NCBI GenBank assembly: GCA_017394835.1
Contig: JAFPXD010000007.1
Coordinates: 171,591-235,590 of the forward strand
Direction: 5' to 3'
Length of the DNA stretch: 64,000 bases
DNA from: Clostridia bacterium
Lineage (GTDB): Bacteria > Bacillota > Clostridia > Christensenellales > CAG-138
Positions 33,577 through 55,514 of the stretch are shown piece by piece (position 1 is the stretch's first letter; each line of letters starts with the position of its first letter). The translations under genes were made by a program, and so were the position numbers. The notes beneath the pieces were generated by a model that ran no database searches, had not been told where the DNA came from, and saw only the letters and a program-made list of their open reading frames with translations.

Positions 33577-33609
33577 CAAGCCTCAACACAGCAAAAAGGA
33601 GAATACGGT

Positions 33610-35043: not shown

Positions 35044-35044
35044 A

Positions 35045-37471
35045 ATGAGGCTTTTATTCAACGAGATAAAAAAGCTTGCGGACGCAAGGCTTCATATCGT
35101 GATCCCCGCGATACTGCTCATCGCCTGCGCCGCGGTCTGCTTTTTGACGGTCCCCAGCAGCGGCGGGTATTCTGGCGCTGCGGCGGACCGGGCGGCGGAG
35201 GAGTTCTGTGCCGCATTCTCTGACGACCCCGAGGGGCTCGATGTGTTCAAAGAGCGTTATCACGAGGCGGTCAAAGCCAAAACCGGGGAGTTGCTCCAAA
35301 AATACGGCGACGCACTGCCGGATCTTCACAAGCATCCGGAGCTGCTTTACACCTTCGTTTTCAGCCCAGATATGCCGGACAGCCTGCTGCTTCGGGGCTT
35401 TGAGGAGACCGAGGCGAGAACGAGCGAATACAGAACGGGCGTTGCGACCGTTATAGCGCAGGCCGTGACCAATATGGAGCGGCTGAAGCAGGACGCCGGC
35501 GCGGGGCTTTCCGATCCGCTCTACCAATATCAGGCATACGCCTATCTGAAATACGCGAACGTGCGTGATAATGCCGCCGTCGGCATAGCCCGGGTCCGCG
35601 GATGGGATACGCTCTTTTCATGGAACTACGGCGGGATATTCCTGTTCGCCTCGCTCATCATATTTGCAAACGCGGTGTTCATCCCCGAAAAGCAGCGCGG
35701 GATGTTGCCAGTGCTTCGCACTGCAAAGCGCGGCAGGCTCGCGTCCGCCACGGCAAAGACCGCGCTGCTGATCGCCGGCGATACGATCCTGTCGCTTCTT
35801 TTTGCGCTCATTCCGTTCTCGGTCATCCTTATAAAGCAGGGCTATTCCGATCCGAATGCCGTCGTGCAGAACATCCGCGCGCTCGCCCTCTTTCCCGAGG
35901 TGTGGAGCATAAAGCGGTTCTTCCTGTACGATCTCGGCGTTAAGCTCCTCGCCGGCACGGCTTTCGGCGCGCTCTGCGGGGCGGTCTCGCTTTTGACATA
36001 CGAGCTCGTTTCTTCCCTCGCCCTCGGGAGCCTGCTTTACGGCGTTTCGTTCGCCTGCTCGAATGTGAGCGCGGCACGATTTCCGCTCGTTCATGCGCTC
36101 AACACCTATTCCGCATACGATATCGCCGCCGTCTCGGACAGGCTGCATATTATCCAGCCGGGGCTGAAATGCATAAGCCTCAACGCCGCCGCGCCCGCCG
36201 CCTGCGCCGTGTGGCTCGCGCTCGGAGCCTGCGCCTGCGTGCTGCTGTTCACGTTCAAAAGGGGACGCGCCGGATCGGCGGGCGGGAAGCTGAAAGCGCA
36301 TATCGCGGCGGGGCTTGCCGCTGTCAAAACAAAAACGCACCGGAAGGAACGGCCCGCGAAGAACCGAGGATACGGCGGAAGCCTCATCGGCTGGGAGCTG
36401 AAAAAGCTGCTCTTTGCCAATACCCCCGTGCTCCTTGCGGTGATCGTACTCTTTGCCGCGTGGCTGGGGTTTCTCGCTTTCCGCCGCGTACAAACCGAGC
36501 CCAGCCGGGAATACCGCATCTGGAAGACTTTCCTTTTGATGGAGGCCGAAGGAGTTTTTTCCGGAAAGCGGGAGCTTTATTCGCTCCTCCTTTCCGCGTA
36601 TTCCTCGCCGAACACCGGTAAGGAACTGCTTGACGAGGCGCTTGACCAAGGCCGAATAACGCCGGAACAGCATTCTCGTTACAGCGAAGCGCTTAATAAG
36701 ATAACAGACGGCGAGCTTTCGGACGACCTTGGTTACGCCTCGGAGCTGTATTTCGAATACACACAGCTGGCGGACGAGGGCATGGAGCCTCACTTTACCG
36801 ACACGGCGGGCGCGGAGCCTCTTATCACTGGCGGAGCGTCGTATCCGCTGTATGCCGCGCTGCTTTTGATACTGCTTGGCGCGTACTTGAAGGAACGCGG
36901 CGGCAAGGACGCGAACGAGCATTTTGAAAGGATCCTCCGCAGCACGAAAAACGGAAGGTCGGCGACCTTCCGTGCAAAGCTTTCGGCGGGGCTCATGCTT
37001 GCGTTCGCGCTGTTTCTGTTGTTCAACGCCGCGGAATTCGCCGCACTGACGGCGGGACGTTCCCTGCGTGCGCTCTCCGCGCCGCTCTGCTCCTTCCCGG
37101 GGTTTGCCGCGGTATCGAGCCGTATGACCGCAGGCGGCTATATGGCGCTGATGTACGCCGTCCGCCTTGCTGCGGCGCTGCTGCTCGCCCTGTTCGCTGC
37201 TGCGGTATCGGCGCTGAGCCAAAGCTTCGTTTCGGCGTTCGGCGCGGCGCTCGGAATAACGCTCCTTCCGACGCTCGTCTTCAAGGCGGGGCTTGACGCA
37301 GCGGGCTTTGCGTCGTTCATGTCCTTCTTCGGAGCAAATGAAATGCTCCTGTTCTCAGCCGAAAAGCAGCTCTTCCGGTCGAGCTTCGGCGTGCTCGCTG
37401 TGTTTACTGCCGCATTTGCATCAATAACGCTCCTGCTGCTTTTCAAAGCATACCGCAAAACTGCGAAATAA
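35045..37471 (+). CDS. Large polytopic membrane protein (putative ABC-2-type permease partner)
   Basis: 808 aa with more than 10 hydrophobic segments in two blocks separated by a soluble insert. It is flanked with 1-2-nt gaps by the lipoprotein gene and the ABC ATPase gene. Confidence 0.55.
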   Translation: MRLLFNEIKKLADARLHIVIPAILLIACAAVCFLTVPSSGGYSGAAADRAAEEFCAAFSDDPEGLDVFKERYHEAVKAKTGELLQKYGDALPDLHKHPELLYTFVFSPDMPDSLLLRGFEETEARTSEYRTGVATVIAQAVTNMERLKQDAGAGLSDPLYQYQAYAYLKYANVRDNAAVGIARVRGWDTLFSWNYGGIFLFASLIIFANAVFIPEKQRGMLPVLRTAKRGRLASATAKTALLIAGDTILSLLFALIPFSVILIKQGYSDPNAVVQNIRALALFPEVWSIKRFFLYDLGVKLLAGTAFGALCGAVSLLTYELVSSLALGSLLYGVSFACSNVSAARFPLVHALNTYSAYDIAAVSDRLHIIQPGLKCISLNAAAPAACAVWLALGACACVLLFTFKRGRAGSAGGKLKAHIAAGLAAVKTKTHRKERPAKNRGYGGSLIGWELKKLLFANTPVLLAVIVLFAAWLGFLAFRRVQTEPSREYRIWKTFLLMEAEGVFSGKRELYSLLLSAYSSPNTGKELLDEALDQGRITPEQHSRYSEALNKITDGELSDDLGYASELYFEYTQLADEGMEPHFTDTAGAEPLITGGASYPLYAALLLILLGAYLKERGGKDANEHFERILRSTKNGRSATFRAKLSAGLMLAFALFLLFNAAEFAALTAGRSLRALSAPLCSFPGFAAVSSRMTAGGYMALMYAVRLAAALLLALFAAAVSALSQSFVSAFGAALGITLLPTLVFKAGLDAAGFASFMSFFGANEMLLFSAEKQLFRSSFGVLAVFTAAFASITLLLLFKAYRKTAK

Positions 37472-37482
37472 AGGTGACGATA

Positions 37483-38352
37483 ATGAAGCTTGAATTTGAA
37501 AAGGTAAGCAAATCGTATGGGAAAACGAGGGCGCTCACAGGCTTTTCGGCCGTGCTCGAGCCCGGCGTTTATGCGCTCCTCGGGCCGAACGGCTCGGGAA
37601 AAAGCACGCTCATGAACATACTGACGGACAACCTAAAGGCGGACGAGGGCCGCATCACCTTCGACGGCAAGGACGTTTTGAAGATGGGCGGCAGATTCCG
37701 CGAAAAGCTCGGCTTCATGCCGCAGTACCCGGGCATGTACGGAAGCTTTACCGCAGAGAGCTTCCTTTGGTACGTCGCCGAGCTTAAAGCCGTTCCGCAC
37801 GAAAAGGCGAAAAGGGATATCGCCGAAGTGCTTGAAGCAGTCGAGCTCTCTGACGCCGCGGGGAAGCGTATTTCATCCTTCTCCGGCGGCATGAAGCAGC
37901 GGCTCGCGCTCGCTCAAGCGGTGCTCGGCGATCCTGCCGTGCTCGTGCTCGATGAGCCCACGGCCGGGCTCGATCCCAAACAGCGCATAGCCGTCCGCAA
38001 TTACATTTCAAAGATCGCCTTCAACAAGATCGTGATCATAGCAACGCACGTCGTTTCCGATATCGAATACATCGCCCGCGACGTCATCATGCTCAAAAAG
38101 GGCGTGATAGTCGATAACGCTCCACCCGCCGAGCTCATCTCCCGTATCGATGGCAGGGTCTGGCGCGTGCCCGCGGCGCCAAGCGAGGTGCAGGAGCTCC
38201 AAGCCCGCTTCACCGTCACGAACATCCAGAAGGACGACCGCGGCGTATCCCTCCGCATCCTCTCGGACGAAGCGCCCGCGCCTGAAGCGGAGCCCGTAAT
38301 GCCCTCGCTGGAGGACTACTATCTGCACGTTTTCGGAGAGACGTCGAACTGA
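37483..38352 (+). CDS. ABC transporter ATP-binding protein
   Basis: It has Walker A GPNGSGKST, signature FSGGMKQRL and Walker B VLVLDEPTAGLD. ATG 37483 is preferred over GTG 37474. Confidence 0.9.
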   Translation: MKLEFEKVSKSYGKTRALTGFSAVLEPGVYALLGPNGSGKSTLMNILTDNLKADEGRITFDGKDVLKMGGRFREKLGFMPQYPGMYGSFTAESFLWYVAELKAVPHEKAKRDIAEVLEAVELSDAAGKRISSFSGGMKQRLALAQAVLGDPAVLVLDEPTAGLDPKQRIAVRNYISKIAFNKIVIIATHVVSDIEYIARDVIMLKKGVIVDNAPPAELISRIDGRVWRVPAAPSEVQELQARFTVTNIQKDDRGVSLRILSDEAPAPEAEPVMPSLEDYYLHVFGETSN

Positions 38353-38741
38353 AACGGTTTTATCCTGCGGTACAATAATTCGAGTAAGCTAAATCATCCA
38401 CGCTCCGCGGCATCGGGTCATAGGGCACAGCCCTTGCAAGCGGCGTTTGTGTACACAAAGGCGATGCTTGCAGGGACATTAACCCGCTGGTATTTCATAT
38501 GGTCTTGCAGAGCGCAAAGCACTTTTGATGGACTTGCTCCGTCAAAAGTGCTTTGCGTCACTTTATCACAAAGTAACAAAGGCTTCTGGTGCAACGTAAG
38601 GGAGTTATAAAAGTCGTGATTACCGATCTTTCCATGCAAAAACTATTTGGTAAGGGGCTGATCCTCTAAAACTGATAAATCTATGGCCGCCAGTTTAACA
38701 CATATGACGAAATATTTAAAAAACTTCGACACGTATAACGG

Positions 38742-38770
38742 TTGTGTTTAACAGTAAAGTGTGGTAGAAT
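38742..38770 (+). promoter_or_regulatory. Possible promoter with extended -10 for the HNH-Fic-R-M operon
   Basis: TGgTAGAAT at 38762-38770 is an extended -10. A weak -35, ttgtgt, lies 17 nt upstream. Two leader hairpins follow at 38789-38814 and 38819-38842. Confidence 0.35.
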
Positions 38771-38907
38771 AGTAGCCGAAGACAAAAACCACCACCAGCT
38801 GGCACTGGCGGTGGTATAGGGTAAAATCAGTAGTTTACCCTGCGCTCCTTCAAGCATTCTTATCATAGCATATCTGCTGCGCTTTGTCAATTTCTACTGG
38901 AGAAAGG

Positions 38908-39180
38908 ATGCAAAAAAGCATGGCGTTTTCAAGCAGCGTAATAGCTGCAGCTTGGCAGCGTTCCGGCGGCAGATGTGAATGTTGCCGTACTACTTGCGGA
39001 CATGGTTCCCGACGTTGCAACAAAGTCTTGAACTGGTATGCACGCGGTAACGATTATGCATCGGGCGGTTGGGAAGCACACCACAAAACCGCAGTAGCTT
39101 CTGGTGGAAGCGACACACTCTCTAATTGCGAGATTCTGTGTATCGCCTGTCACAAGAACACACGTACATACGGACGGTAA
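38908..39180 (+). CDS. HNH endonuclease-domain protein (90 aa)
   Basis: GGAGAAAGG precedes ATG 38908. The HNH core is GGWEAHHKTAVASGGSDTLSNCEILCIACHKNT, with additional CxC/CxxC Cys residues. Confidence 0.75.
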   Translation: MQKSMAFSSSVIAAAWQRSGGRCECCRTTCGHGSRRCNKVLNWYARGNDYASGGWEAHHKTAVASGGSDTLSNCEILCIACHKNTRTYGR

Positions 39181-39234
39181 TCACCGGTTGGCGGGCAGCG
39201 CAAACCTGCCCGCCAATATCCAGGAGGTTGAATC

Positions 39235-40362
39235 ATGTTTGATCCGAAACAACCATATAACGAACTGCCGCTGATTTCAACACTCGAAATCGACGTTTCT
39301 ACTGGTCTTGGAAAGCTTGCAGAGGATACTAGGGTTGCAGTCGAGATTCTGAATTACGCAGTTAAAACATTGCCTGATCATAACATCCTTTTGGATACAC
39401 TCGCGCTCCAAGAAGCACGGGCCAGCAGTAATATCGAAAACATAGTAACAACAAATGATGATCTGTATCGGGGCGTCGTCTTTGAAGACTTTACGGCGGA
39501 GGCAAAAGAAGTCAGCTGCTATAAAGATGCTTTGTTTGCCGGTTATACCCGGATGCTGGATAAAGGCCTAATCTCAACCAGTGATATCGAAGCAATCAAT
39601 GCGCCGGTGAATCATAAACAACCTGGGATCCGGACGAACCTTCCGAATTTCAATGACCTTACCAGGATAGAGAATCGCAAATCTAATGGAGAGAGTGAGA
39701 TAATCTACACGCCGCCGCATGGCATTGATCTCCTTCACAGATTGCTAATTGATATGTTGGACTTCGTTTATGATGATGACACATACTCTCTTCATCCACT
39801 GATAAAAATAGCTTTAGCCCACTATCAATTTGAAAGCATCCACCCGTTCCGGGATGGAAATGGCAGAACTGGGCGTATTTTGAATATCCTCTTCCTTTGT
39901 CAAAAAGGTTATCTGGATTCGCCAATCCTATATGCCAGTTCTTACATTATCAGAAATAAAAATCTCTATTACGATCTTTTGCGAGTATCCAAGGAAACGG
40001 AAAAATACGAGCCCATCGTAGAATTTATGCTTCGCTCGTTCAAGGAAACCGCCGAAGAGACATTGAGAATTGTCGAAAGCATACGGGCGCTGATCACGCA
40101 GTATTCGGACAAGGAATACCTCTCGACGCTAAAAGGTCAGATCGAACCGCTGCAAAACACGGTCGAGGCAATCTTCAAAAAGGTCTATGTCCGGGTTGCG
40201 GATCTTGTGGAACTGGGCATCCACCGGCAGACAGCCGCAACTTATCTTGACCAGTTCGTTGACCAGGGCCTACTGAGCAAAGAGCGTGTTGGCCGGGATA
40301 ACATCTATAAAAACATCAAACTGCTTGAGCTGTTTGATTACGATAGTGAGGAAACGAAATGA
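39235..40362 (+). CDS. Fic-family protein (AMPylase-type, class II auto-inhibited)
   Basis: The canonical active site is HPFRDGNGRTGR. The N-terminal inhibitory motif SSNIEN matches (S/T)xxxE(G/N). There is a C-terminal winged-helix-like tail. The stop overlaps the hsdM start (ATGA). Confidence 0.9.
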   Translation: MFDPKQPYNELPLISTLEIDVSTGLGKLAEDTRVAVEILNYAVKTLPDHNILLDTLALQEARASSNIENIVTTNDDLYRGVVFEDFTAEAKEVSCYKDALFAGYTRMLDKGLISTSDIEAINAPVNHKQPGIRTNLPNFNDLTRIENRKSNGESEIIYTPPHGIDLLHRLLIDMLDFVYDDDTYSLHPLIKIALAHYQFESIHPFRDGNGRTGRILNILFLCQKGYLDSPILYASSYIIRNKNLYYDLLRVSKETEKYEPIVEFMLRSFKETAEETLRIVESIRALITQYSDKEYLSTLKGQIEPLQNTVEAIFKKVYVRVADLVELGIHRQTAATYLDQFVDQGLLSKERVGRDNIYKNIKLLELFDYDSEETK

Positions 40363-42098
40363 ATAACACTGCTCTGACTGCTGACGTAACCAGCAAAGTC
40401 AATCTTGTAAAAAGCATTGCAAACAAGACTCGCGGGCCGTACACTCCGGAGAAGTACGGCAGCGTCATCATCCCCATGGCGATCATCCGCCGGTTTGACT
40501 GCATCCTGGCCGAGAAAAACGCCGACATCGAAAAGATCCTGCAGGCCGCCTCCAAGGTCAAAGGTATGACGCCTGATAAACTGGAGGAAATGGTCAAGCG
40601 TTCCTGCGGCGTGCCGTTCTATAACGCAAAGTGCGTCTCTCTGGAACAGCTGGTTGGAGACAGCGACAACCTCAATTCCAATTTCCTGGAATTTATCGCC
40701 GCATACTCACCCAGCATTCAAAGGATCCTGCAGAGTCTGAAATTCCGCGAGGAAGTGGAGTTCATGATTAAGAAGGGCATCTTGTTCGAGGTTGTAAAGG
40801 CCTTCTCGGAAGTTGACTTCCACCCCTCCACCACAAGCCCCATGGCTATGGGTTATATCTTCGAAGAGATCATCCGCACCTATAAGGCCAATGCCGAGGC
40901 CGGTGATCATTACACCCCCCGTGAGGTCATCGAACTTTGCATTGATCTGATGCTCAGCGAGAACGTGGACAGTCTGAAAAAAGAGGGCAAGATCATTCGC
41001 ATCTATGACGGATGCTGCGGTACCGGCGGCATGTTGACTACAGCTAAGCGCATGCTTACCGATCCGGAGGAGGGCTTCAATATCCGTGCCGATAACATTC
41101 GCCTTTACGGTCAGGACAACAACCCGGAGGCGTACGCGGTCTGCCAGGCGGAAATGCTGATGCTGGGCGACGATCCCGCCTATATTCGTGAGGGCAACAC
41201 CCTTACAGAGGACCAGTTTCCGGGAGAGAAATTTGACCTGCTGATCACCAATCCTCCTTTCGGCGTAGAGTGGAAAACGGAAAAGAGCACGGTGGAAAAA
41301 GAGCTCAAGCAGCCCAACAACCGCTTTGTGGCTGGGACACCCCGCGTCAGCGACGGGCAGCTTCTTTTCCTGCAGAATCTGTTAGCCAAAGCCGAGGATG
41401 ACGCCCGCGTGGCCATTATCTTGAATGGTTCTCCGCTGTTTTCAGGCGATGCCGGCAGCGGGGAGAGCGAGATACGCCGCTATGTACTGGAGAACCATCT
41501 GCTTGAAGCAATCGTTGCGCTTCCGGACCAAATGTTTTATAACACAGGCATCTATACCTATATCTGGATTCTGTCCAAAACGCCCAATCGCAAGCGTAAT
41601 AAGCAGATCCAGCTCATCGATGCAACCAAGGAGTTCATTCCTCAGCTTCCGAAATCGCTAGGCAATAAACGCAAATTCATCGACGAAGCAAATCGAAAGT
41701 CAATTGTCGCGGAATACCGCGCCGCACAGCAGTCAGAGATCAGCAAGTTCTTTGACGCGAACGACTTTGGCTATACCAAGGTGACGATGGAATGTCCGCT
41801 GTATGACGAGAAGGGCAACAAAGTCATCAAGCGGGGTGTAGTGCAGGTGGATCCCAAGCGGCGTGATACAGAGATCATCCCGCTCAAGCGGGACATCGAT
41901 GCATATATCAAGGCGGAGGTCCTGCCCTATGTACCCGACGCTTTCCCCGACCGCAGCAAGGACAAGATCGGCTATGAAATTCCCTTCACCCGGTATTTCT
42001 ACAAATATACGCCGCCTCGCAAGAGTGAGGACATCCTCAAAGAGATCATCGCCAACGAAGAAGAGCTGCAGCAGACCCTGAAGGTGGTGCTCAGCTAA
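40359..42098 (+). CDS. hsdM: Type I R-M DNA methyltransferase subunit (locus 2)
   Basis: Motif I is YDGCCGTGGML and motif IV is ITNPPFGVEW. 579 aa. Confidence 0.9.
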   Translation: MNNTALTADVTSKVNLVKSIANKTRGPYTPEKYGSVIIPMAIIRRFDCILAEKNADIEKILQAASKVKGMTPDKLEEMVKRSCGVPFYNAKCVSLEQLVGDSDNLNSNFLEFIAAYSPSIQRILQSLKFREEVEFMIKKGILFEVVKAFSEVDFHPSTTSPMAMGYIFEEIIRTYKANAEAGDHYTPREVIELCIDLMLSENVDSLKKEGKIIRIYDGCCGTGGMLTTAKRMLTDPEEGFNIRADNIRLYGQDNNPEAYAVCQAEMLMLGDDPAYIREGNTLTEDQFPGEKFDLLITNPPFGVEWKTEKSTVEKELKQPNNRFVAGTPRVSDGQLLFLQNLLAKAEDDARVAIILNGSPLFSGDAGSGESEIRRYVLENHLLEAIVALPDQMFYNTGIYTYIWILSKTPNRKRNKQIQLIDATKEFIPQLPKSLGNKRKFIDEANRKSIVAEYRAAQQSEISKFFDANDFGYTKVTMECPLYDEKGNKVIKRGVVQVDPKRRDTEIIPLKRDIDAYIKAEVLPYVPDAFPDRSKDKIGYEIPFTRYFYKYTPPRKSEDILKEIIANEEELQQTLKVVLS

Positions 42099-42126
42099 CA
42101 TTAGGCTAAGACAAAAGGAGATACAG

Positions 42127-42903
42127 ATGTCATTAATCATTACGATCCATGTTGAAGAAGGCATCGTTATGGCTAGCGATAGCCGAACGACTTTCAATAC
42201 ACAAGATTTTAGCCCGCTTCCTGATGGAAAAGGTGCAATTATTACTAAGTACCAAGGTGTTCATTATTCAGATACGACATATAAGACTTTTTTAGCTCCG
42301 AACAGCACAGGCATTTCAACATGCGGAGCCGCTGCTATCAACGGGAAGCCGTTGACAGGGTATGTTGAAAAGTTCATACATAACTCTATTCAAAAAGACA
42401 CTGATATCTGTGATGTTCCCGCGCTCCTTCTTGCACATTTTAGAAGCTATGTTCCGATTCCTGATATTGTCTTTCAAGTGGCGGGCTATTCAAAAACTGG
42501 AACCACATCTGTGCAGAAAGTGTATAGAGTTTTTGTAATGGCCAACCGCATTGACGAACTTGATACTTCCTCCCAGGGTGCGGCATGGAACGGTGAGACC
42601 GAAATCCTGTCAAGGATCATCAATTCATTGTGGACGCAGAAAAAAGGAAAAGATCAAAAAACGGGTGAAGAAATCGTCCTGTATGACGAATTAAAGGCTC
42701 CCCCTATACCTTGGAATTTCTTTTCTCTCCAGGATGGAATTGATTTTGCTACATACGCCATTAATACGACTATAGAAACCATGCGATTCCAAGAACGGCT
42801 AAAAACTGTTGGTGGTCCCATTGATATTCTGATTATCAAGCCAGATGGTGCATTTTGGGCCTCCCATAAAACCCTCCACGTGCGAGGAAAGGGGAAACGA
42901 TAA
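42127..42903 (+). CDS. Proteasome-beta/HslV-like Ntn-hydrolase-fold protein with Ser at position 2, embedded in R-M locus 2
   Basis: MSLIITIHVEEGIVMASDSRTT aligns with the mature TTIVGVxxxxGVVLAADxRxT, which puts Ser1/Asp17/Arg19 at canonical positions. Later blocks follow in order: YKTFLAPNSTGISTCGAAA, IVFQVAGYSK, AAWNGETE and KTVGGPIDILIIKPDG. Confidence 0.55.
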   Translation: MSLIITIHVEEGIVMASDSRTTFNTQDFSPLPDGKGAIITKYQGVHYSDTTYKTFLAPNSTGISTCGAAAINGKPLTGYVEKFIHNSIQKDTDICDVPALLLAHFRSYVPIPDIVFQVAGYSKTGTTSVQKVYRVFVMANRIDELDTSSQGAAWNGETEILSRIINSLWTQKKGKDQKTGEEIVLYDELKAPPIPWNFFSLQDGIDFATYAINTTIETMRFQERLKTVGGPIDILIIKPDGAFWASHKTLHVRGKGKR

Positions 42904-42905
42904 CT

Positions 42906-44198
42906 ATGCGAGCCATGAAAGACAGTGGGATCGAATGGATCGGTGCAATTCCGCAAAACTGGGAGCTGCGAAAAATCAAGACCAACTTTGACATAATTGC
43001 CGGAGCAACGCCGAAAAGCGGTGAGGCAAGTTTTTGGGATGGCGATATTCCTTGGATCACCCCTGCCGACTATACGACCGAAGGTGTATATGTCTCTGCC
43101 GGTCATAAAAGCATTACGCAGGATGGCTTGAACTCCTGCGCAACAAGTCTCATTCCGGAAGGTAGCATCATTTTTTCCAAACGTGCTCCCGTGGGGCTTG
43201 TGGCCATTAACAGCAACTCTCTCTGCACCAATCAAGGTTGCCTATCCTGCGTCCCGAAAGATTCGGTTGATGCGAAATACTATTATTATGTCATGAGCAT
43301 TTATGGCGAACAGTTTGATCTGTTTGCCTCGGGAACCACATTTAAGGAGATTTCGGCAGACGCTTTTGCAAACTTCAAACTTCCATATCCGGATTATGAG
43401 ACGCAGAAGCGGATCACGTCATTCCTCGACACTAAATGTGCCGAGATTGATGCGCTGATTGCCGCAAAGGAAAAGACCAACGCGCTGCTGAAAGAGCGGC
43501 GGCAGAGCATCATCTATGAGGCGGTCACCAAAGGCCTTGATCCCACCGTGCCCATGAAGGATAGCGGCGTTGAATGGATCGGAGAGATCCCAGAGGGTTG
43601 GAAAATTACAGCATTAAAAAGGTTGGGAACACCGGCAACCGGTTCCACACCGTCAAAAGATAATGCCGATTATTGGGACGGCGATATTCCCTGGGTGTCT
43701 TCTAAGGATATAAAATCGGATTATCTCCTTGATTCCGAGGATCATATTACGCAAACCGCTGTTGATGAGTGCGGGCTTACGCTGTTCTCTTCTGGGGCTT
43801 TAATCTTTTGCGTTCGCTCCGGTATCCTTCGTCATACATTCCCGGTTGCTGTAGCAACAATCCCGGTTACGATCAATCAGGATCTCAGATCGCTTAGTAT
43901 GACCGGTGATGTCAATCCAGCCTTCGTGCTCTACTACATGAGGGGAATGAACGATATCATTGTAAGGCTCTATCAAAAAATAGGCGCAACAGTCGAGAGC
44001 ATCGAGATGGATTGGTTCCTATATTTCCCTGTAGTGTTGCCGACGCGTGAAGAACAGGATCGTATTGTTGAAGCGCTTGATTCAAGATGCACATCACTGG
44101 ATCACACAGTAATGCAGAATGAGGCTACCATTAGGCAACTGAAAGAATACCGACAAAGCCTGATCTACGAGGCGATTACCGGAAAAATAGAGGTGTAA
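42906..44198 (+). CDS. hsdS: Type I R-M specificity subunit (locus 2)
   Basis: The two TRDs each open with MKDSG(I/V)EWIG.IP..W. The conserved helices are LKERRQSIIYEAVTKGL and LKEYRQSLIYEAITGKI. Confidence 0.9.
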   Translation: MRAMKDSGIEWIGAIPQNWELRKIKTNFDIIAGATPKSGEASFWDGDIPWITPADYTTEGVYVSAGHKSITQDGLNSCATSLIPEGSIIFSKRAPVGLVAINSNSLCTNQGCLSCVPKDSVDAKYYYYVMSIYGEQFDLFASGTTFKEISADAFANFKLPYPDYETQKRITSFLDTKCAEIDALIAAKEKTNALLKERRQSIIYEAVTKGLDPTVPMKDSGVEWIGEIPEGWKITALKRLGTPATGSTPSKDNADYWDGDIPWVSSKDIKSDYLLDSEDHITQTAVDECGLTLFSSGALIFCVRSGILRHTFPVAVATIPVTINQDLRSLSMTGDVNPAFVLYYMRGMNDIIVRLYQKIGATVESIEMDWFLYFPVVLPTREEQDRIVEALDSRCTSLDHTVMQNEATIRQLKEYRQSLIYEAITGKIEV

Positions 44199-44199
44199 A

Positions 44200-45018
44200 A
44201 TGTTTAACGTGTACTATATCAATTATGCAAAAGCGTTTGAAATCACAATGCAAATGGATAATAAGATACTCGAACAGACTATAAAGGAAAGAGGCTGGGA
44301 TGTTTCTGCTAATGCACATGGAGAATTTGATGTAAAACAGTCCTTTCTAAACGCATTGTTTCCTAAGCTTTCTGCTTCATCCGATCTAAAAGGATCGAAA
44401 TCCAGCAAGACAACGGACACCATAAAAGTGGTTTCTACAAAATCCACCGTTCTATCTCCGATAGTAAAGAAGGCAACCGAGGTCAAGAAAATTGACGATA
44501 ACAAGATCGGGAATCTGATAAAAATCAAAAATGTTCAGTTAACAGTTCATAACGGGAATGACATGATGGCAGTAAAAGCACTCTTGAGCGGCTTTCTTGA
44601 TCAAATACCTGTCGAAGGACTTGGGCAGAAAGATCTTACAGGCCTTGCGGATGCATTTTTTAAAGGTGCATCATACATACTAACGGGGAAAATGCCCGAG
44701 AAAGTAAATACTGGTAAAAAAGGGGATCAGATTATTCTAAAGATCCCGATTCAGCTTGAGAATGAGATGGAATCTCAGTACAGTATTGCCGACATAGAGA
44801 TAGGTCCGGTTACAGTCATTGGTATCTATCGCGGGAAGCATAACGCCGGAGAAGTAAGAGCAAGAATGGACATGCTATCTGCATATAACGAACGTAAAAG
44901 TACAATCGAAATTGAGACGGCAGATGATGCAACCAATCCAGACAGAAAGGGCTTTGATGCAAAAGCAGAGATGCACTACATTGATGTAATTGCAGTTATT
45001 CAGGAATTGAATGTGTGA
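44200..45018 (+). CDS. Hypothetical 272-aa protein, DolA-like by position (partner of ClpB-like ATPase)
   Basis: It starts 1 nt after the hsdS stop. I recognise no catalytic motif. The assignment rests on the gene pair matching the published Dodola gene content (DUF6414 + ClpB-like), which I cannot verify without an HMM search. Confidence 0.4.
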   Translation: MFNVYYINYAKAFEITMQMDNKILEQTIKERGWDVSANAHGEFDVKQSFLNALFPKLSASSDLKGSKSSKTTDTIKVVSTKSTVLSPIVKKATEVKKIDDNKIGNLIKIKNVQLTVHNGNDMMAVKALLSGFLDQIPVEGLGQKDLTGLADAFFKGASYILTGKMPEKVNTGKKGDQIILKIPIQLENEMESQYSIADIEIGPVTVIGIYRGKHNAGEVRARMDMLSAYNERKSTIEIETADDATNPDRKGFDAKAEMHYIDVIAVIQELNV

Positions 45019-45028
45019 GGGTAAGTAT

Positions 45029-46216
45029 ATGGCAGGACTAACGCTATACACATACGATCGAAAAAACTGGGATGCTATCTCAGATACAATTAAGCTTGAA
45101 AACATAAAAGTGTTGACAGCACAGGAGATGAGCTATGTTGCTGTAATCAGAAACACCCCCAAGAAGGATGGAGAAGAAATTAAGATTCATCCGTTTAAAC
45201 ACGAGTATTATGATATTTCGTTGTTAATTTCAGGAGATAATGAAAGAGTCGATGTATGGAGTGGACATCTGATAACAGCTCTTCAACTTGCTGAAGAAGA
45301 TCACAACAAAAACAGGAAATTTATTGTTGACAAGAAATATGCAAGTGATATTCTCAGTGCTTTGTTTTATTTCTTTAGCGACAGTGCGCCATTGGAGAAG
45401 TTTCTAAAGCTGGATGACACGACAGTCACCAATATTGTGGATTGTGCGGACGAGACTATCGTTGGGCTGGGAATTTATCTCCAAGCCAATCTGTTCGGCA
45501 ATCCTAAATTCAAAACCAGATTGATACAAGAGCTAAAGCGATTTCGCTTGTTTAACAAGCTTGGAGAAAGAAAAGTCTTTTCAGCGTTTGTATGCGGGCC
45601 AAGCGGCATTGGCAAAACATTAACAGCAAAGCTGTTGCATGATTTCCTTGCGCCGAATGAAAGATACATCAAGATTAATCTTGGAAATTACAGCGATCAT
45701 AATGCGTTAAGCAGTCTTATAGGAAGTCCACGAGGATATGTTGGAAGCAGTAAAGGGGAACTGTCAAGCAAGATAGCAGAGAGCAAGTCCACTGTTATTC
45801 TGATTGATGAATTTGAGAAAGCAAGTCAGGAGGTGCATAATTTCTTTCTCGAGTTGCTTGCAGATGGTAAGTTTACAGATTCTCAGGGTAGAGAATATGA
45901 TTTGAATAAGTACATCATCATCTTTACTTCTAATATTGATGAAAACGAATTCAACAGAAAGATCCCTCCGGAGCTGCGATCTCGCTTTGACTTGGTTTAT
46001 AAAATGGTTCTGCTATCGAAAGAAGAAAAAACAGCTTATATTCAGTATAAAACCAACTATTATGTAGAACAAGCCAAAGAGATGATGGGTATTTCTCTTG
46101 AGTCGGACAGCATTATCGCCAATATGGGAAGCAAAGTAATGAGCTTGGATAATATCAGGTTTATTACAAGAGAGATTGAGCAGTATATAGCTGCTGCTGT
46201 AGAAGAAAAACAATAA
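45029..46216 (+). CDS. ClpB-D2-like AAA+ ATPase (DolB-like)
   Basis: It has Walker A VCGPSGIGKTLTAKLL, the Clp-type IGSPRGYVGSSKGELS, Walker B VILIDEFEKA, GKFTDSQGREYDLNKYIIIFTSN (sensor 1) and PPELRSRFD. An alternative start is at 45011. The about 180-aa N-terminal region is unassigned. Confidence 0.75.
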   Translation: MAGLTLYTYDRKNWDAISDTIKLENIKVLTAQEMSYVAVIRNTPKKDGEEIKIHPFKHEYYDISLLISGDNERVDVWSGHLITALQLAEEDHNKNRKFIVDKKYASDILSALFYFFSDSAPLEKFLKLDDTTVTNIVDCADETIVGLGIYLQANLFGNPKFKTRLIQELKRFRLFNKLGERKVFSAFVCGPSGIGKTLTAKLLHDFLAPNERYIKINLGNYSDHNALSSLIGSPRGYVGSSKGELSSKIAESKSTVILIDEFEKASQEVHNFFLELLADGKFTDSQGREYDLNKYIIIFTSNIDENEFNRKIPPELRSRFDLVYKMVLLSKEEKTAYIQYKTNYYVEQAKEMMGISLESDSIIANMGSKVMSLDNIRFITREIEQYIAAAVEEKQ

Positions 46217-46266
46217 TTCCCCACCGCCGAGGGTGCCAGACCTCGGAGAGAAAAGGAGGAATCAAT

Positions 46267-49215
46267 ATGGCAGAATCGGATCTTCGGGAAAACCCCTTCC
46301 GGGACGAGATCTATGATTACTTTCTCGCCCATGGCTATGTAGCCGGTCAGAAGGCAGACTATGACTATAAGCACGCTCTGGACGTCAGCAAGCTGTTTGC
46401 GTTCCTGGAAGCGACCCAGTCCAAAGAGCTTGCCAGGTTAAAGGAAACATACGGTTCCCGTTATCAGGAACGGTATGTGGAGCTGCTGTGCCAAAAAATC
46501 GAAAACCGCGGACTGCTGACTGCCCTTAATGAATGGGTTGAGGATTACGCAAGCGGGACGAAATTCAGCCTTGCCTTTTTCAAGTCAGGGCTGAGTGCAA
46601 TGTCCGAAGGACTTGAGCTTTATAAGAAAAACGTGTTCTCGATCCGAAAGGAGTTCAGCTTTGAGGACAAGGCCGATCCCTACCGGGTAGACCTTGCGAT
46701 GTTCTTGAACGGCATTCCCATTGTGATGATCGAGCTGAAAAAGCAGACAGCCGGGCAAAAGGCAGTCTTTGAGGGAACAAAGCAATTCCGGACGACGCGC
46801 AATCCGGACGAACTGATATTCTCCTTTAACCGCCGCACGCTGGCATACTTCACTTTGGATGAGTTTGCGGCATTTCTGACCACACGGCTGGACCGAAAGG
46901 AAACCAAGTTCCTGCCTTTCAACCGTGGATCAGACGATGAAGGTGCAGGCAATCCCGTTGTTCCGGGCAAGCACAGCACCTGCTATGTTTGGGAAGATAT
47001 CCTTCAGCGGGATATGCTGCTGCGCATCATTCGGGAGTTCATGTTTATCGACGATGAGGGGGCCATGATTTTCCCTCGCTTTCACCAACTTCGGGCAGTC
47101 CTGCGCTGTGAACAGGATGTGCAGAAAAACGGAGTCGGCGGACGCTACCTTATCTGGCACAGCGCCGGCAGCGGCAAGACGAAGACCATCGCTTGGCTGG
47201 CGAAGCGGATGATCAACCATCCGGAAATCAACACGGTCATCGTTATCAGCGACCGCACGGTCATTGACGGACAGTTAGGCGCTGAGCTGATGAACGTTGA
47301 TGGAAAAAAAGGCGTGGCGCAGCATATCGATACGACCTCTAAGGATCTGCTGAAAAAGCTGAATGACGGCGGCTATATTATCGTAACAACGCTGCAGAAA
47401 TTCAGACCGATCCTGAGTGAAATCAAACAGCACGAGGATCGCAATTACGCCATTATTATTGATGAAGCTCATTCCTCTACCGCAGGCAAGTCCATGTCCA
47501 AGGCGTCTGAAACCCTGACCGGCAAGTCTTTAAAGGAGGCGGTCGAACTGGATGATATATATGAAGATCTGGAAGATGGGCAGAATCAGCTGATTCGGGA
47601 CGGAGCGGCCATTCGCAGCACTCGCAACGTCAGCTACTTTGCCTTTACCGCTACGCCTAAGAAGGAGACCATGGAGCTCTTCGGTACGCGCACGGAAATA
47701 GGTAAGACGTATTTTGACAAATATTCCATGAAGCAGGCAATCGAGGAACGCTTTATTCTCAACCCGTTGCTCTGTTATACTTCGTATCGGGACTTCTATC
47801 GCGTTGAAAAGAAGAAGGAAGATGATAACGAATATGACAGTGCAAAAGCGCAGGCGGCGATCCTTAATTATGTGACGTCCTCTGATGAAGTGATCCAAAC
47901 GAAAACGGAGATCATGTTGAGCGATTTCATCGAGCGTCGCCAGACCTGGCTTGAGGGAAGATCGAAAGCCATGATTATTACGCCTTCCCGCAAACATGCC
48001 GTATGCTATAAATTAGCCATAGATGAGTATCTGAAAAAGCGTGGCTGTGGGTTCCGCTCTTGTGTTGCCTTTACCGGCACGATCGAGCTTGACGGCATCA
48101 AGTTCACTGAAGAGCAGATGAATAAGGATTATCTTGAACACGGTGTACCTTATGATATCAAATCGATCATTCATAAAAACGACGACTGCAGGATTATAAT
48201 CGTCGCCGACAAGCTGCAGACGGGCTTTGACGAAGATGCTCTTTGTGTCATGTATATTGACAAAAAGCTGAACAGCAGCGTAAAGGCTGTTCAGACAATA
48301 TCGCGTTTGAATCGTACAGCTCGCAACAAGCGCACCTTCGTAATGGATTTTATAAACGATCCTGATATGATCCGGGCTTTCTTTACACAGTATTACGGCG
48401 GTGAACTGTACCTTCCCACCGAGAACGAGACTGATCCGAACATCCTGTTTGCGAAACGGGATCATATTCTGGATTATTGTGTTGTAACGCTTTTAGATGC
48501 ACAGAAGATTTACAGCTTGATTTCTTCCAATGAAGAAAACGGTGGCGAATTGACATCGATGATTGCCAGCATTTCCCGCAATTACCGCGCTCTTGAGCCG
48601 GATCTCAGGAAAGCTTTTGCTCTGGAATTGGATAAATTTGGGAAGCTGTTCTACTATATCTCTGCTGTTTATAATGTATGGAATCGAGATATGGAGCAGT
48701 TGGCGGTTGTCTTTAGTGTCCTGTACAACGTACTTTATGAGAAAGAGGTTACACCTGATATTGATGCCTCCGAACTCGTTGAACTAGTCGAATACTCAAC
48801 CAAGCTGTCCCAGGAAGAATTCACGATTTTTCTATCTGCGGAAGATCAGGCATTTAACGGCATTTCAACGGATGTTACTGCTGCGGATAGAACTATGTCG
48901 GTGATCGATGAGATCATCGAAAAGTTTAATCTTCGCTATGCACACGCAGACGAGGAGATAGGCAATATAATAACTGAGCTTAGCAGTGATAAGGATCTAC
49001 AGTCTAACGTGCAGAATAGTAGTACTAGTGCGTATGAGGCTGCAGTGGCAGAACGCCTCTCGTCTCGTATTATGGATGGCTTATTCGACGGAACAGTTAA
49101 CGGAGAAACGGAGAAGGCAGAATTTTACACTGAATTGAGTGAGAACACCTCAGCACTGATTCAAATCCGCAATTCGATTATTCGAAAGATCAAGGATCTC
49201 TTGCTGGCGAGTTGA
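46267..49215 (+). CDS. hsdR: Type I restriction enzyme R subunit (locus 2)
   Basis: AAGGAGG RBS. It has Walker A WHSAGSGKTKT, the DEAH-type IIIDEAHSS and motif VI QTISRLNR. 982 aa. Confidence 0.9.
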   Translation: MAESDLRENPFRDEIYDYFLAHGYVAGQKADYDYKHALDVSKLFAFLEATQSKELARLKETYGSRYQERYVELLCQKIENRGLLTALNEWVEDYASGTKFSLAFFKSGLSAMSEGLELYKKNVFSIRKEFSFEDKADPYRVDLAMFLNGIPIVMIELKKQTAGQKAVFEGTKQFRTTRNPDELIFSFNRRTLAYFTLDEFAAFLTTRLDRKETKFLPFNRGSDDEGAGNPVVPGKHSTCYVWEDILQRDMLLRIIREFMFIDDEGAMIFPRFHQLRAVLRCEQDVQKNGVGGRYLIWHSAGSGKTKTIAWLAKRMINHPEINTVIVISDRTVIDGQLGAELMNVDGKKGVAQHIDTTSKDLLKKLNDGGYIIVTTLQKFRPILSEIKQHEDRNYAIIIDEAHSSTAGKSMSKASETLTGKSLKEAVELDDIYEDLEDGQNQLIRDGAAIRSTRNVSYFAFTATPKKETMELFGTRTEIGKTYFDKYSMKQAIEERFILNPLLCYTSYRDFYRVEKKKEDDNEYDSAKAQAAILNYVTSSDEVIQTKTEIMLSDFIERRQTWLEGRSKAMIITPSRKHAVCYKLAIDEYLKKRGCGFRSCVAFTGTIELDGIKFTEEQMNKDYLEHGVPYDIKSIIHKNDDCRIIIVADKLQTGFDEDALCVMYIDKKLNSSVKAVQTISRLNRTARNKRTFVMDFINDPDMIRAFFTQYYGGELYLPTENETDPNILFAKRDHILDYCVVTLLDAQKIYSLISSNEENGGELTSMIASISRNYRALEPDLRKAFALELDKFGKLFYYISAVYNVWNRDMEQLAVVFSVLYNVLYEKEVTPDIDASELVELVEYSTKLSQEEFTIFLSAEDQAFNGISTDVTAADRTMSVIDEIIEKFNLRYAHADEEIGNIITELSSDKDLQSNVQNSSTSAYEAAVAERLSSRIMDGLFDGTVNGETEKAEFYTELSENTSALIQIRNSIIRKIKDLLLAS

Positions 49216-49260
49216 ATATAGAATATTTGGACAAAAGTTTGGGAAAGACTATCATAATAC

Positions 49261-49291
49261 GAGGCTCGGAGTAACTCTCCGTGCCTCTTTT
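49261..49291 (+). terminator. Rho-independent terminator after hsdR (locus 2)
   Basis: The hairpin gaggcTcggag-taact-ctccgTgcctc (5+5 bp with one internal mismatch) is followed by TTTT. Confidence 0.6.
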
Positions 49292-49351
49292 CATAATCGT
49301 GACAGTTTTGTCAAGTTTGGACAGATCGGTACAAAACTTTTCAAAAAGGTA

Positions 49352-49405
49352 TTGACAGTGGATAGTGGGGCATGTATAATATGTATGCTAATGAAACATA
49401 TGTTT
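49352..49405 (+). promoter_or_regulatory. Consensus sigma-70 promoter plus Cheo/SOS-box-like palindrome upstream of the LexA-family gene
   Basis: TTGACA at 49352-49357, a 17-nt spacer, then TATAAT at 49375-49380. The perfect palindrome AAACATATGTTT lies at 49394-49405. Its core AACATATGTT equals the centre of the Bacillus-type box CGAACATATGTTCG. Confidence 0.7.
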
Positions 49406-49423
49406 TATTTAATCGGAGGTGGC

Positions 49424-50020
49424 ATGAGAAGCAAGGATAAGACGCTAATGGCCGCAATAGAGCGGTTCGTGTGCGAATACGCGGACAGGCACGGCTACTC
49501 CCCTTCGATGCAGGAGATCGCCGAAGGAGTGGGAAGCTCCAAGCCCACGGTGTATAGGTACATCAGCCAGATGAACCGTGACGGCATACTGGAGTATTCA
49601 GGTGTGAGGAACGTTCACTCCGCAAAGGATAACCCAAGCGCTGCGAGAGTCGGGATACCGGGACGTGTTGCGTGCGGTCTTCCGAGGTTGGCAGAGGAGA
49701 ATATAGAGGAGTACGTTAAGCTTCCTGTATCGTTATTCGGCGAAGGACCCTTCTATCTGCTTACCGCAAGCGGTGATAGTATGATCGAAGCCGGAATCGA
49801 CGACGGAGACTGGGTGCTCGTAAGGCAGCAGGATACCGCCGAACCCGGAAAAATCGTCGTCGCTCTCATTGGGGACGAAGCCACTCTCAAGCGCTACTAC
49901 CCCGAGCCGGAGAATCACCGGATCAGGCTCCACCCGGAGAACCGTACGATGGAGGATATTTACGTCGACTCCTGCGAGATACAGGGTGTCGCGGTAAGTG
50001 TATTCAAGGATCTGACATAA
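49424..50020 (+). CDS. LexA-family repressor (winged-helix + S24 self-cleaving peptidase)
   Basis: GGAGG precedes ATG 49424; the track start at 49352 lies inside the promoter. It has the LexA-type N-domain GYSPSMQEIAEGVGSSKPTVYRYISQMNRDGIL, the cleavage-site-like VACG, the catalytic Ser in SGDSM and the catalytic Lys in EATLKRY. Confidence 0.8.
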   Translation: MRSKDKTLMAAIERFVCEYADRHGYSPSMQEIAEGVGSSKPTVYRYISQMNRDGILEYSGVRNVHSAKDNPSAARVGIPGRVACGLPRLAEENIEEYVKLPVSLFGEGPFYLLTASGDSMIEAGIDDGDWVLVRQQDTAEPGKIVVALIGDEATLKRYYPEPENHRIRLHPENRTMEDIYVDSCEIQGVAVSVFKDLT

Positions 50021-50034
50021 GGAGGCAAGAAGAA

Positions 50035-50223
50035 TTGGAAGACGGCGTTAAGCTGTACGCCTGCTGCCCGAGATGCGGCAGGCAGATCTGTAAGGCAAAG
50101 ACATGTGACGGAATGGAACTGAGCTGCTCGAAATGCGGAGCGGACCTTCGTATTACGGTTGACGAGAACTGCCGCGTAGAGGTCGAGCTGCTCCGATACG
50201 AGCGGGAACGCAAACGGGCTTGA
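50035..50223 (+). CDS. Small zinc-ribbon protein (Mu Com-like)
   Basis: 62 aa with two CxxC pairs (CPRCGRQ..CSKCGAD). TTG start with GGAGG 9 nt upstream. Confidence 0.45.
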   Translation: MEDGVKLYACCPRCGRQICKAKTCDGMELSCSKCGADLRITVDENCRVEVELLRYERERKRA

Positions 50224-50689
50224 TTTAAAAAACAACTGAATACATACTCCGCTGTGCATTGAAGCGACGGACTCGGCATGAACCGTTAGGATCGTCGTGC
50301 ACGGGGAGGATCTGTTAAGGGATGGGACTTGGCTGTGAATCAAGAGGCTTCCGACAGATAGCTTATCCAAGGGATAGGTCTATCGTCGGGGGCTTTTGAT
50401 TTGTGAATCACATTTCGGGTATGGTGCCAAACACGCCGTTTTGGGCATCACAGGGCAGAACGGTGATGCCGCCGTGATGCCAAATTGATACCCGTGAATG
50501 GCTTTGCAAGCATCGCCTCTGTCATGACAAAGGCCGCATGCCTGCGGTGGACAATTGCCCGGATGTTATTGCCGGCAATTGTCCTTGCAAGCATGGGATT
50601 TGTGTCCCCAAATCCGCGCTTGCAAAGACTCCGCCCTTGGACCTCATGCCGCTCAGCGGGAAAAGAACGATAATAAACCGGAGGTATAA

Positions 50690-51010
50690 ATGAGAAACAG
50701 ACAGTATGAAACGCATTTGCGGCTGAACGAAAAAGAACAGAAAAAGCTTGACGAGCTCGCAAAGAAGGCCGGCGTCACCAAGTCGGCGGTGTTAAGAAAG
50801 CTTATCATGGGCACGGAGATCAAGGAGCGCCCGAACGTCGATTTCATCGACCTTATTCAATCGATCGACCATCTGGCAATAAACGTCAACCAGATAGCGC
50901 ATCATGCAAATATGCAGGGCGGTATCACCGTGGAGGAGGCTGCCGAGGCAAAACGATTGGTAACGGAGATACGCAGACGGCTGTATTCGAGGAGGGATAT
51001 TTTCGGCTGA
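50690..51010 (+). CDS. MobC-family mobilisation (relaxosome accessory) protein
   Basis: The ribbon-helix-helix-like RLNEKEQKKLDELAKKAGVTKSAVLRKLI and the conserved NVNQIAHHAN block fit the family. GGAGG RBS. Confidence 0.7.
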   Translation: MRNRQYETHLRLNEKEQKKLDELAKKAGVTKSAVLRKLIMGTEIKERPNVDFIDLIQSIDHLAINVNQIAHHANMQGGITVEEAAEAKRLVTEIRRRLYSRRDIFG

Positions 51011-51029
51011 GCATCGTCCCCATGAAGGA

Positions 51030-52409: not shown

Positions 52410-52507
52410 CCTTCCTCCCAGTAGGCAAAAAGGGTTGATCATATGGTAACAGTAACGGTAACAAGCACCAAAAAAGAAAAATATGGCGTGTAAAGAAATA
52501 GGGTTAT

Positions 52508-53401: not shown

Positions 53402-53404
53402 ACA

Positions 53405-55352
<1,948 letters not shown>

Positions 55353-55373
55353 CCGATTTTGGACATAAGAAAA

Positions 55374-55409: not shown

Positions 55410-55411
55410 TA

Positions 55412-55494: not shown

Positions 55495-55514
55495 AAAATT
55501 CGATTGCGAAAGGT

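Follow-up and report, generated by a model that had tools for sequence, protein, structure and literature searches.

The DNA analyzed here is a window of 64,000 nucleotides (nt) from an uncultured Clostridia bacterium (assembly GCA_017394835.1, contig JAFPXD010000007.1, forward-strand positions 171,591 to 235,590). Within it, open reading frame (ORF) calling places a tightly packed operon of eight plus-strand genes at positions 38884-49215; all coordinates are those of the window unless a related locus is named. The operon encodes the three subunits of a Type I restriction-modification (R-M) system, HsdM, HsdS and HsdR, together with an HNH protein, a Fic protein, a hydrolase of the N-terminal nucleophile (Ntn) type, and the two-gene module PDC-M37A/B (here M37A, M37B and M37AB). 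We consider it probable that this locus is a mobile Type I R-M system whose backbone, HNH-Fic-hsdMSR, includes two cassette slots, and that its genes are co-expressed and co-transferred and most likely act independently. The evidence comes from relatives, in which both slots are found empty or filled with unrelated cassettes. The outcome would be a set of stacked defenses, each layer acting on its own.

Organization of the operon

The genes, in order, are as follows:
38884-39180, plus strand: HNH ORF, open from TTG 38884, with in-frame ATGs at 38908 and 38920
39235-40362, plus strand: Fic ORF
40359-42098, plus strand: hsdM ORF
42127-42903, plus strand: Ntn hydrolase ORF, 258 amino acids (aa)
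42906-44198, plus strand: hsdS ORF
44200-45018, plus strand: PDC-M37A ORF
45011 (or 45029)-46216, plus strand: PDC-M37B ORF
46267-49215, plus strand: hsdR ORF
49261-49291, plus strand: terminator-like hairpin with a T-rich tail after hsdR (scan core 49267-49281; by eye, a 9-bp stem with one mismatch)

The junctions are, in order, a 54-nt gap, a 4-nt overlap (ATGA, combining the Fic stop with the hsdM start), gaps of 28, 2 and 1 nt, an 8-nt overlap or 10-nt gap, and 50 nt. A first-pass annotation of the same sequence had described eight co-directional ORFs, and every junction length that it gave was reproduced by ORF calling. Translation shows all eight ORFs to be intact, with their catalytic motifs present. 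The annotation was also right that the block is AT-richer than its flanks: G+C is 0.39-0.54 across the operon, with a minimum of 0.39-0.41 at 44000-46000, versus 0.58-0.61 upstream at 31000-38000. Low G+C extends to ~55.4 kb, which makes the operon one part of a larger foreign segment.

By their family matches and motifs, HsdM, HsdS and HsdR are Type I R-M subunits. HsdM has HsdM_N and N6_Mtase domains (5e-56), matches the PADLOC MTase_I model PDLC03029 (1e-208), and its translation contains the catalytic motif NPPF and the S-adenosylmethionine-binding motif DGCCGTGG. It has more than 8000 relatives, the top 120 of which are 81-91% identical. HsdS matches Methylase_S twice (9e-40), giving two target-recognition domains (TRDs); many PADLOC Specificity_I models match as well, and hsdS contains an internal repeat (42913-42952 / 43552-43591). 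TRD1 is 92% identical to that of the related locus L090 (42915-43602 vs L090:11746-12433), while the neighboring hsdM is 84% identical to that of the same locus, which argues for a recent exchange of the specificity domain, the usual TRD shuffling. HsdR combines HSDR_N, ResIII/SWI2_SNF2 and T1R_D3 domains with the motifs D...ELK (a PD-(D/E)xK nuclease), GSGKT and DEAH. Its match to TIGR00348 (6e-61, 207 bits) lies below the subfamily cut-off of 284 bits. The exact HsdR sequence has been deposited as MBQ4447085.1, from a Clostridia metagenome-assembled genome, and recurs in 10 contigs. The subunits would be expected to assemble as HsdM2S1(R2), methylating host DNA and cutting DNA that is unmodified.

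Exchange of cargo at two slots

What do relatives of this operon carry at the same positions? A metagenome scan with HsdM yielded 80 loci, which were annotated by phmmer with the operon's proteins; slot counts refer to the loci with an HsdM at least ~59% identical. The hsdM/hsdS junction is empty in 23 of 30 loci, and in L090-L092 the two genes overlap by ATGA. Where this junction is filled elsewhere, the cargo is a 288-290-aa PDC-S13/Bro-N protein, a 121-aa protein, or a KAP NTPase (PDC-S20) with an AbiJ-like protein (PDC-S32). The hsdS/hsdR junction is empty in 6 of 23 loci, with only 0-9 nt between the genes in L104, L105 and L112. Filled hsdS/hsdR junctions hold at least nine different cassettes, none of which is M37AB. 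Among the part of these cassettes that was scanned against family libraries, those identified are a transmembrane protein with a ThsB-type TIR protein, DUF6119, PDC-M34A/B (DUF5343 plus HEPN), and a PDC-S08 5'-nucleotidase. Overwhelmingly, the alternative cargo belongs to recognized defense families, whether known or candidate.

The exchange has sharp edges. When the locus is aligned by blastn with seven relatives that carry different cargo, two blocks are conserved, and only parts of hsdS match between them. In the left block, homology begins at 38697-38779 and stops at 42064-42094, where hsdM ends. It returns in the right block at 46212-46229, 40-55 nt before the hsdR ATG whatever the cargo, and lasts until 49181-49226. 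Defense modules would be gained, lost and replaced at these slots, most likely by homologous recombination between the hsdM, hsdS-core and hsdR flanks.

The distribution of the cargo across genomes also shows that the Ntn gene assorts independently of M37AB. For example, L177 and L178 have the order HNH-Fic-HsdM-Ntn (74% identical)-HsdS, followed by a pair encoding a 140-aa protein and a TIR protein in place of M37AB. More broadly, the Ntn gene occurs without M37B in L005, L010, L177-L181 and ~70 other genomes.

These results change the earlier picture of the locus. The first-pass annotation had counted five cargo genes in three slots; the comparison leaves two slots and three cargo genes, with HNH, Fic and hsdM as a conserved unit. 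It had also argued for functional integration and “not a random neighbourhood,” a claim meant to fail if relatives were seen to exchange the cargo freely. Such exchange is what the relatives show: the slots are empty or hold unrelated cassettes, empty-site alleles exist at both, and the Ntn gene and M37AB separate from each other.

The conserved front of the operon

The first gene encodes an HNH zinc-finger protein of 86 aa, counted from the ATG at 38920. The gene had been noticed before, with its start placed at ATG 38908; the start conserved in relatives is 38920. The protein matches Pfam HNH at 3.3e-4, just short of the cut-off, and the C-terminal part of PADLOC mREase_IV at 1.4e-7. Searches with tblastn find the gene ahead of Fic in 25 related loci, where its product is 57-98% identical in amino acids, and the 97% amino-acid versus 83% nucleotide identity of HNH indicates clear purifying selection.

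Fic has the Pfam architecture Fic_N + Fic + SoFic-like_C, the last being a C-terminal winged-helix domain, and matches PADLOC SoFic over residues 13-367 (1.1e-88). As first noted from the sequence, its translation contains both the catalytic motif HPFx(D/E)GN(G/K)R, here HPFRDGNGRTGR, and the class II inhibitory motif (S/T)xxxE(G/N), here SSNIEN. It scores 283 bits against the NCBIfam SoFic equivalog NF046030, for which the cut-off is 550 bits, and so is SoFic-like but no equivalog. By analogy with SoFic, it may be an auto-inhibited AMPylating toxin that leads to abortive infection. Fic lies directly 5' of hsdM in 26 of 32 loci, 15 of which have the same 4-nt overlap. On this gene order, Fic is translationally coupled to hsdM and is the fixed leader of the R-M operon, and HNH and Fic, with hsdM, make up the conserved front of operons in this R-M family and are not inserted cargo.

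SoFic-like genes of 41% identity head other operons too: one on a Phaeobacter plasmid (L182) with TerB-N, ATPase, DEAD helicase and DUF4297 genes, and one on a Komagataeibacter plasmid (L183) with DNA methyltransferase, DEAD helicase and GIY-YIG genes. These contexts suggest that Fic proteins of this class serve as operon “leaders” more generally. SO4266 may itself belong to a Type I R-M cluster; a preprint on SoFic and EF-Tu is silent about the genes around SoFic.

The PDC-M37A/B module

The second slot, between hsdS and hsdR, holds M37AB. Both PDC-M37 hidden Markov models (HMMs) of PADLOC are matched (PDC-M37A, 9.3e-87; PDC-M37B, 1.6e-113), with the genes in A-B order and adjacent or overlapping. 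M37B also matches DolB (4.7e-30) and Pfam AAA_2 (6e-26), which bears out its earlier description as ClpB-like. It is an AAA+ ATPase of the ClpB NBD2 type, with a Walker A motif GPSGIGKT and a Walker B motif ILIDEFE, and would be 395 aa long if translated from 45029. The earlier label “DolA-like” for M37A stands only through intermediates: 5 of 42 M37A homologs match DUF6414 (best E 3.3e-7), which we take to be DolA's family, and HMM searches with the locus protein itself gave no DolA or DUF6414 match. An AlphaFold2 (AF2) model of M37A is weak (pLDDT, the predicted local distance difference test, 63), and its best Foldseek match, to MCM N-terminal/OB-fold proteins, is not significant (E 0.05).

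M37B is always paired with M37A, whether the locus has an R-M system or not. Indeed, the pair is found free-standing, without R-M genes, on plasmids of Priestia and Listeria, beside Lamassu in Clostridium drakei, and on a further mobilizable element. These contexts show M37AB to be autonomous of R-M at the level of gene content. It may act as an AAA+-driven system of the Dodola type, with a putative anti-phage role. In one sample, an otherwise identical locus (L173:1703-2916) has M37B split into ORFs of 34 and 362 aa; the split reflects a frameshift allele or else a mistake in the assembly.

A proteasome-like hydrolase between hsdM and hsdS

The first slot holds the 258-aa Ntn protein, which has no match in Pfam (E <= 0.01, including Proteasome PF00227), NCBIfam or PADLOC. 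Its fold is clearer. An AlphaFold2 model (pLDDT 83, predicted TM-score 0.78) matches 20S proteasome beta subunits and Anbu in the Protein Data Bank (PDB) by Foldseek, with E-values of 1.6e-6 to 1e-4 and probability 1.0. There are 152 PDB matches at E <= 1e-3, and the top 50 listed are all 20S proteasome subunits or Anbu. A profile of 42 Ntn homologs also matches a proteasome beta subunit (E 0.0093), with Ser2 aligned to the catalytic Thr1 and residue 4 to beta residue 3; the profile was needed for this, as a single-sequence search of PDB sequences gave only a chance match. M1, D18, K53 and G62 are invariant in the family, and S2 is at least 90% conserved. Hence, the name “Ntn hydrolase” given in the first-pass annotation is upheld by both fold and profile, with a serine as the predicted nucleophile: Ser2, with Asp18 and Lys53 as the predicted equivalents of Asp17 and Lys33. 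Matches within the family almost always start at residue 1, which argues that the protein has no propeptide. It is predicted to be a peptidase or amidase.

Where are other members of this family found? The family comprises 1893 clusters at 50% identity; no match turned up in 50,697 phage records searched by tblastn. In 70 species-representative genomes, its wider members (~40-50% identity) sit in varied, largely metabolic neighborhoods. Just 2 of the 139 immediate neighbors are hsd genes; GNAT, aminotransferase and asparaginase genes top the list, and these 139 neighbors include no recurrent partner, no AAA+ gene and no enrichment for defense. Closer relatives are found with R-M genes. Operons of another Type I family, ordered hsdR-(x)-hsdS-Ntn-hsdM with a variable gene at x, encode an Ntn protein of 63-65% identity, and in L078 and L080 an Ntn protein of 44-45% identity is likewise encoded between hsdM and hsdS in a Type I operon. 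In L179-L181, a short pAgo system, made of Piwi and SIR2 genes, comes immediately after the hsdR-x-hsdS-Ntn-hsdM operon, and together they form a compact defense island.

With a proteasome-beta fold and an AAA_2/ClpB NBD2-type ATPase encoded in one operon, one could imagine that the Ntn hydrolase and M37B are the two halves of an HslUV-like, ATP-dependent protease, encoded at separate places in the operon, the more so since no AAA+ partner is known for orphan proteasome homologs (PMC8665760). We regard this as extremely improbable. The two genes occupy different slots and are freely separable: the Ntn gene is found without M37B in the loci and genomes listed above, and M37B, always beside M37A, is found without an Ntn gene. 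The pairing was rejected on this independent assortment.

The leader and the expression of the operon

How would such an operon be controlled? The leader and the first intergenic region contain four candidate elements:
38705-38731, no strand assigned: operator-like palindrome (G)TCGAA-N13-TTCGAC, just 5' of the operon promoter and nearly invariant in six aligned leaders
38742-38770, plus strand: candidate operon promoter, TTGTGT, 17-nt spacer, TGgTAGAAT (extended -10)
38779-38890, minus strand: candidate cis-antisense small RNA gene opposite the operon 5' untranslated region, with a ~77-nt transcript of three stems
39188-39216, plus strand: GC-rich hairpin with an 11-bp stem and a weak U-tract, between the HNH stop and the Fic ribosome-binding site

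The GTCGAA...TTCGAC motif is also present upstream of Fic in the HNH-less loci L104, L105, L109 and L117. The palindrome may be an operator, with the winged-helix C-terminal domain of Fic as a candidate binder. In the candidate operon promoter, the -35 TTG and the -10 TAnAAT are kept in six leaders. The antisense RNA gene has a promoter with TTGACA (38890-38885), a 17-nt spacer and TGcTATGAT (ending at 38862) that scores 11/12, and an intrinsic terminator with a 12-bp stem (38815-38788) and a U-run. Both promoter elements, -35 and -10, are retained by 13 distinct relatives, and RNAalifold finds compensatory changes in 11 of 25 pairs across 13 distinct sequences, with G-U pairs that fit the minus strand only. 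The RNA has no match in Rfam.

The hairpin after HNH is found at the same position in nearly all HNH-bearing relatives, with differing stem sequences, and is followed by a clear T-run in L092, L094, L097 and L111. From these features it looks like a terminator or attenuator, so HNH may be expressed above the other genes, and Fic-hsdR may depend on read-through. The single terminator claimed for the operon is therefore only partly right: the hairpin after hsdR is there, at 49261-49291, and a second terminator-like hairpin and a candidate antisense RNA gene lie near the start. A 12/12 sigma-70 consensus promoter at 49352-49380 opens the next unit, downstream of the hsdR terminator. One transcript would run from ~38742-38770, through a leaky post-HNH hairpin, to ~49261-49291. 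A probable single promoter for all genes would give them shared regulation and let them travel together; shared transcription and shared horizontal transfer are both likely.

Independent layers or one machine?

Several points weigh against independence of the layers. First, independence is deduced from comparative genomics. Second, the eight-gene set has been kept together through ~17% divergence and across two elements: in loci L001-L004 all eight are present on another kind of mobile element, with ~83% nucleotide identity. Third, Ntn proteins at least 63% identical to that of the locus lie between hsdM and hsdS in 6 of 6 arrangements examined, and this position holds in two Type I families of opposite order, M-Ntn-S and S-Ntn-M. 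This placement of the Ntn gene is a hint that it is specifically tied to the methylase core and does not just fill a free slot. Fourth, common expression could be less complete than the packing of the genes implies. If the post-HNH hairpin is a real terminator, Fic-hsdR could need read-through or another promoter, and internal signals are neither proven nor excluded by scans that gave 22 promoters versus 17.9 +/- 4.9 in shuffled sequence and 13 terminators versus 11.9 +/- 3.0.

Could the eight genes instead be one integrated, multi-layer machine, with cargo that senses or backs up the R-M system by a PrrC-like guardian logic and depends on it? The second and third of these points would fit such a machine, as would the tight co-directional packing, the translational coupling and the precedent of PrrC/EcoprrI. 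Even so, we judge it unlikely, given that close relatives have empty slots or unrelated cassettes and that the Ntn gene and M37AB assort independently. In addition, M37AB is a stand-alone pair in other genomes, and the constant position of the R-M-embedded Ntn clade has to be set against a family most of whose members lie far from R-M genes. An R-M backbone with exchangeable, independently acting cassettes accounts better for these facts.

A narrower idea concerns the Ntn gene and the leader. The R-M-embedded Ntn clade might be an unrecognized defense effector or a Type I R-M accessory at the methylase core. Alongside it, expression in this R-M family might be governed by an unusual leader circuit made of the palindrome, perhaps bound by the Fic winged-helix domain, and the cis-antisense RNA. 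We put this forward tentatively, as a possibility with the balance of probability against it. The Ntn hydrolase may process or degrade Hsd subunits (restriction alleviation), degrade anti-restriction proteins, or serve as a guardian. If true, such a role would for the first time place a large family of uncharacterized proteasome homologs in a functional context. The antisense RNA and operator, for their part, could explain how a toxic Fic protein and a restriction enzyme come to be expressed in a new host without harm to it.

It is very unlikely that the inserted genes are passengers with no role in defense (housekeeping or mobile-element genes), or that the R-M system has decayed and the block is a genomic fossil. 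The wider Ntn family is indeed found mostly among metabolic genes, PDC-M37 is a candidate system only, and M37B is split in one sample. However, the eight ORFs are intact with catalytic motifs, the same HsdR sequence is present in 10 contigs, HNH is under purifying selection, and the alternative cargo is overwhelmingly of recognized defense families.

The mobile element

By its gene content and position, the operon is the cargo of a ~17-kb integrative mobilizable element beside a tRNA-Leu gene. The features downstream of the operon are:
49352-50020, plus strand: LexA-like S24 repressor (Pfam)
50690-51010, plus strand: NikA/MobC (Pfam)
51030-52409, plus strand: VapE-like protein (Pfam)
52508-53401, plus strand: ParB_N (Pfam)
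53577-55352, plus strand: large serine recombinase (Pfam), abutting tRNA-Leu
55412-55494, minus strand: tRNA-Leu(GAG) (ARAGORN, Rfam)

The identical arrangement of the element is found in other metagenome samples (L170-L172). The element of L001-L004 has a tyrosine integrase, Mob_Pre and TnpV. No convincing att-type direct repeats were found flanking the island, and an Rfam scan of 38000-56500 returned the tRNA only.

Three repeat structures lie around the operon. A 48-nt inverted repeat, 77% complementary (38436-38483 / 50494-50541, 12 kb between the arms), brackets the R-M operon and the S24 repressor; its right arm (50494-50541) is upstream of NikA. A hairpin with 20-nt arms at 38513-38557 resembles an oriT, since the sequence that it matches in L001 and L090 lies upstream of Mob_Pre; it may have been left behind by the other carrier element. 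Immediately past tRNA-Leu, at the edge of the element, is a tandem array (55601-56031) with 7.9 copies of a 55-nt G+C-rich unit at 90% matches. Since 55 is not divisible by three and no unique spacers separate the copies, the array is neither a coding repeat nor a CRISPR.

Comparison with known systems

What does this locus add to what is known? The embedding of defense genes in Type I R-M operons is an already published pattern, and the locus is a good example of it that introduces no new principle. Payne et al. reported that embedded genes are frequent in Type I R-M, BREX, DISARM and Hma systems, with 96.7% of them in the same orientation, and derived 145 PDC candidates from embedded genes, including PDC-M37, PDC-S13, PDC-S20, PDC-S32, PDC-M34 and PDC-S08 (bioRxiv 10.1101/2024.01.29.577857). 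The value of the locus is in its clarity. It is a clean natural example of Type I R-M operons that carry exchangeable immune cassettes, with empty-site alleles, sharp recombination breakpoints, and one backbone shared by two types of small mobile element among Clostridia of the gut and rumen. It also offers three leads: the R-M-linked Ntn family, the R-M-leading SoFic-type Fic, and the leader antisense RNA with its operator. The Ntn family, which has no model in Pfam or PADLOC, passes the published “guilt-by-embedding” criterion in two R-M families.

The closest parallels are other defense genes embedded in Type I R-M operons, such as TgvAB and the Rlo genes of Campylobacter; there too, extra genes of known and candidate defense families lie among the hsd genes and point the same way. 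TgvAB, within the Type I R-M system of VPI-2 in V. cholerae, is protective alone (10.1101/2024.04.04.588119); M37AB resembles it in being an autonomous embedded module. Unlike in other embedded cases, both junctions here are filled together, behind a conserved HNH-Fic front. The Ntn cargo has no model in PADLOC-DB v2 or Pfam, and the host is an uncultured Clostridia bacterium in which the operon itself rides on small integrative mobilizable elements.

PrrC/EcoprrI is the classic coupled case, in which an anticodon nuclease is held in check by a Type Ic R-M system (PMC12707154), and PrrC is almost exclusively R-M-embedded (10.1101/2024.01.29.577857). The present operon is similar in having an effector gene inside an hsd operon. 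However, none of its eight proteins matches the PADLOC models for PrrC or RloC; it encodes no ABC-ATPase/anticodon-nuclease protein, and M37AB and most of the Ntn family are not R-M-embedded.

The individual proteins have their own counterparts. Fic shares with SoFic the three-domain architecture, the catalytic HPFx(D/E)GNGR motif, the inhibitory (S/T)xxxE(G/N) helix and a strong PADLOC match. SoFic is a single-gene system, whereas this Fic is the fixed, coupled leader of an R-M operon and reaches 283 of the 550 bits required of an equivalog. M37AB resembles Dodola (DolA/DolB) in having two genes, an A protein followed by a ClpB-like AAA+ B protein that matches DolB, and PADLOC PDC-M37 and DefenseFinder Dodola can call the same genes (PMC11811056). 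It differs in that M37A matches neither DolA nor DUF6414, and PADLOC files the pair as the separate candidate PDC-M37.

Lastly, the Ntn hydrolase has in common with HslV, Anbu, BPH and the orphan proteasome homologs a proteasome-beta Ntn fold, an N-terminal nucleophile, a conserved Asp and Lys, and a patchy, prokaryote-wide family. It differs from them in having Ser rather than Thr as the predicted nucleophile, no propeptide (the protein starts M-S), two insertions, and no match to Pfam Proteasome. A survey of new proteasome homologs by Fuchs et al. in 2021 found neither an informative genomic context nor an AAA+ partner (PMC8665760). In contrast to those homologs, the Ntn subclade described here has a reproducible context, the hsdM/hsdS junction.

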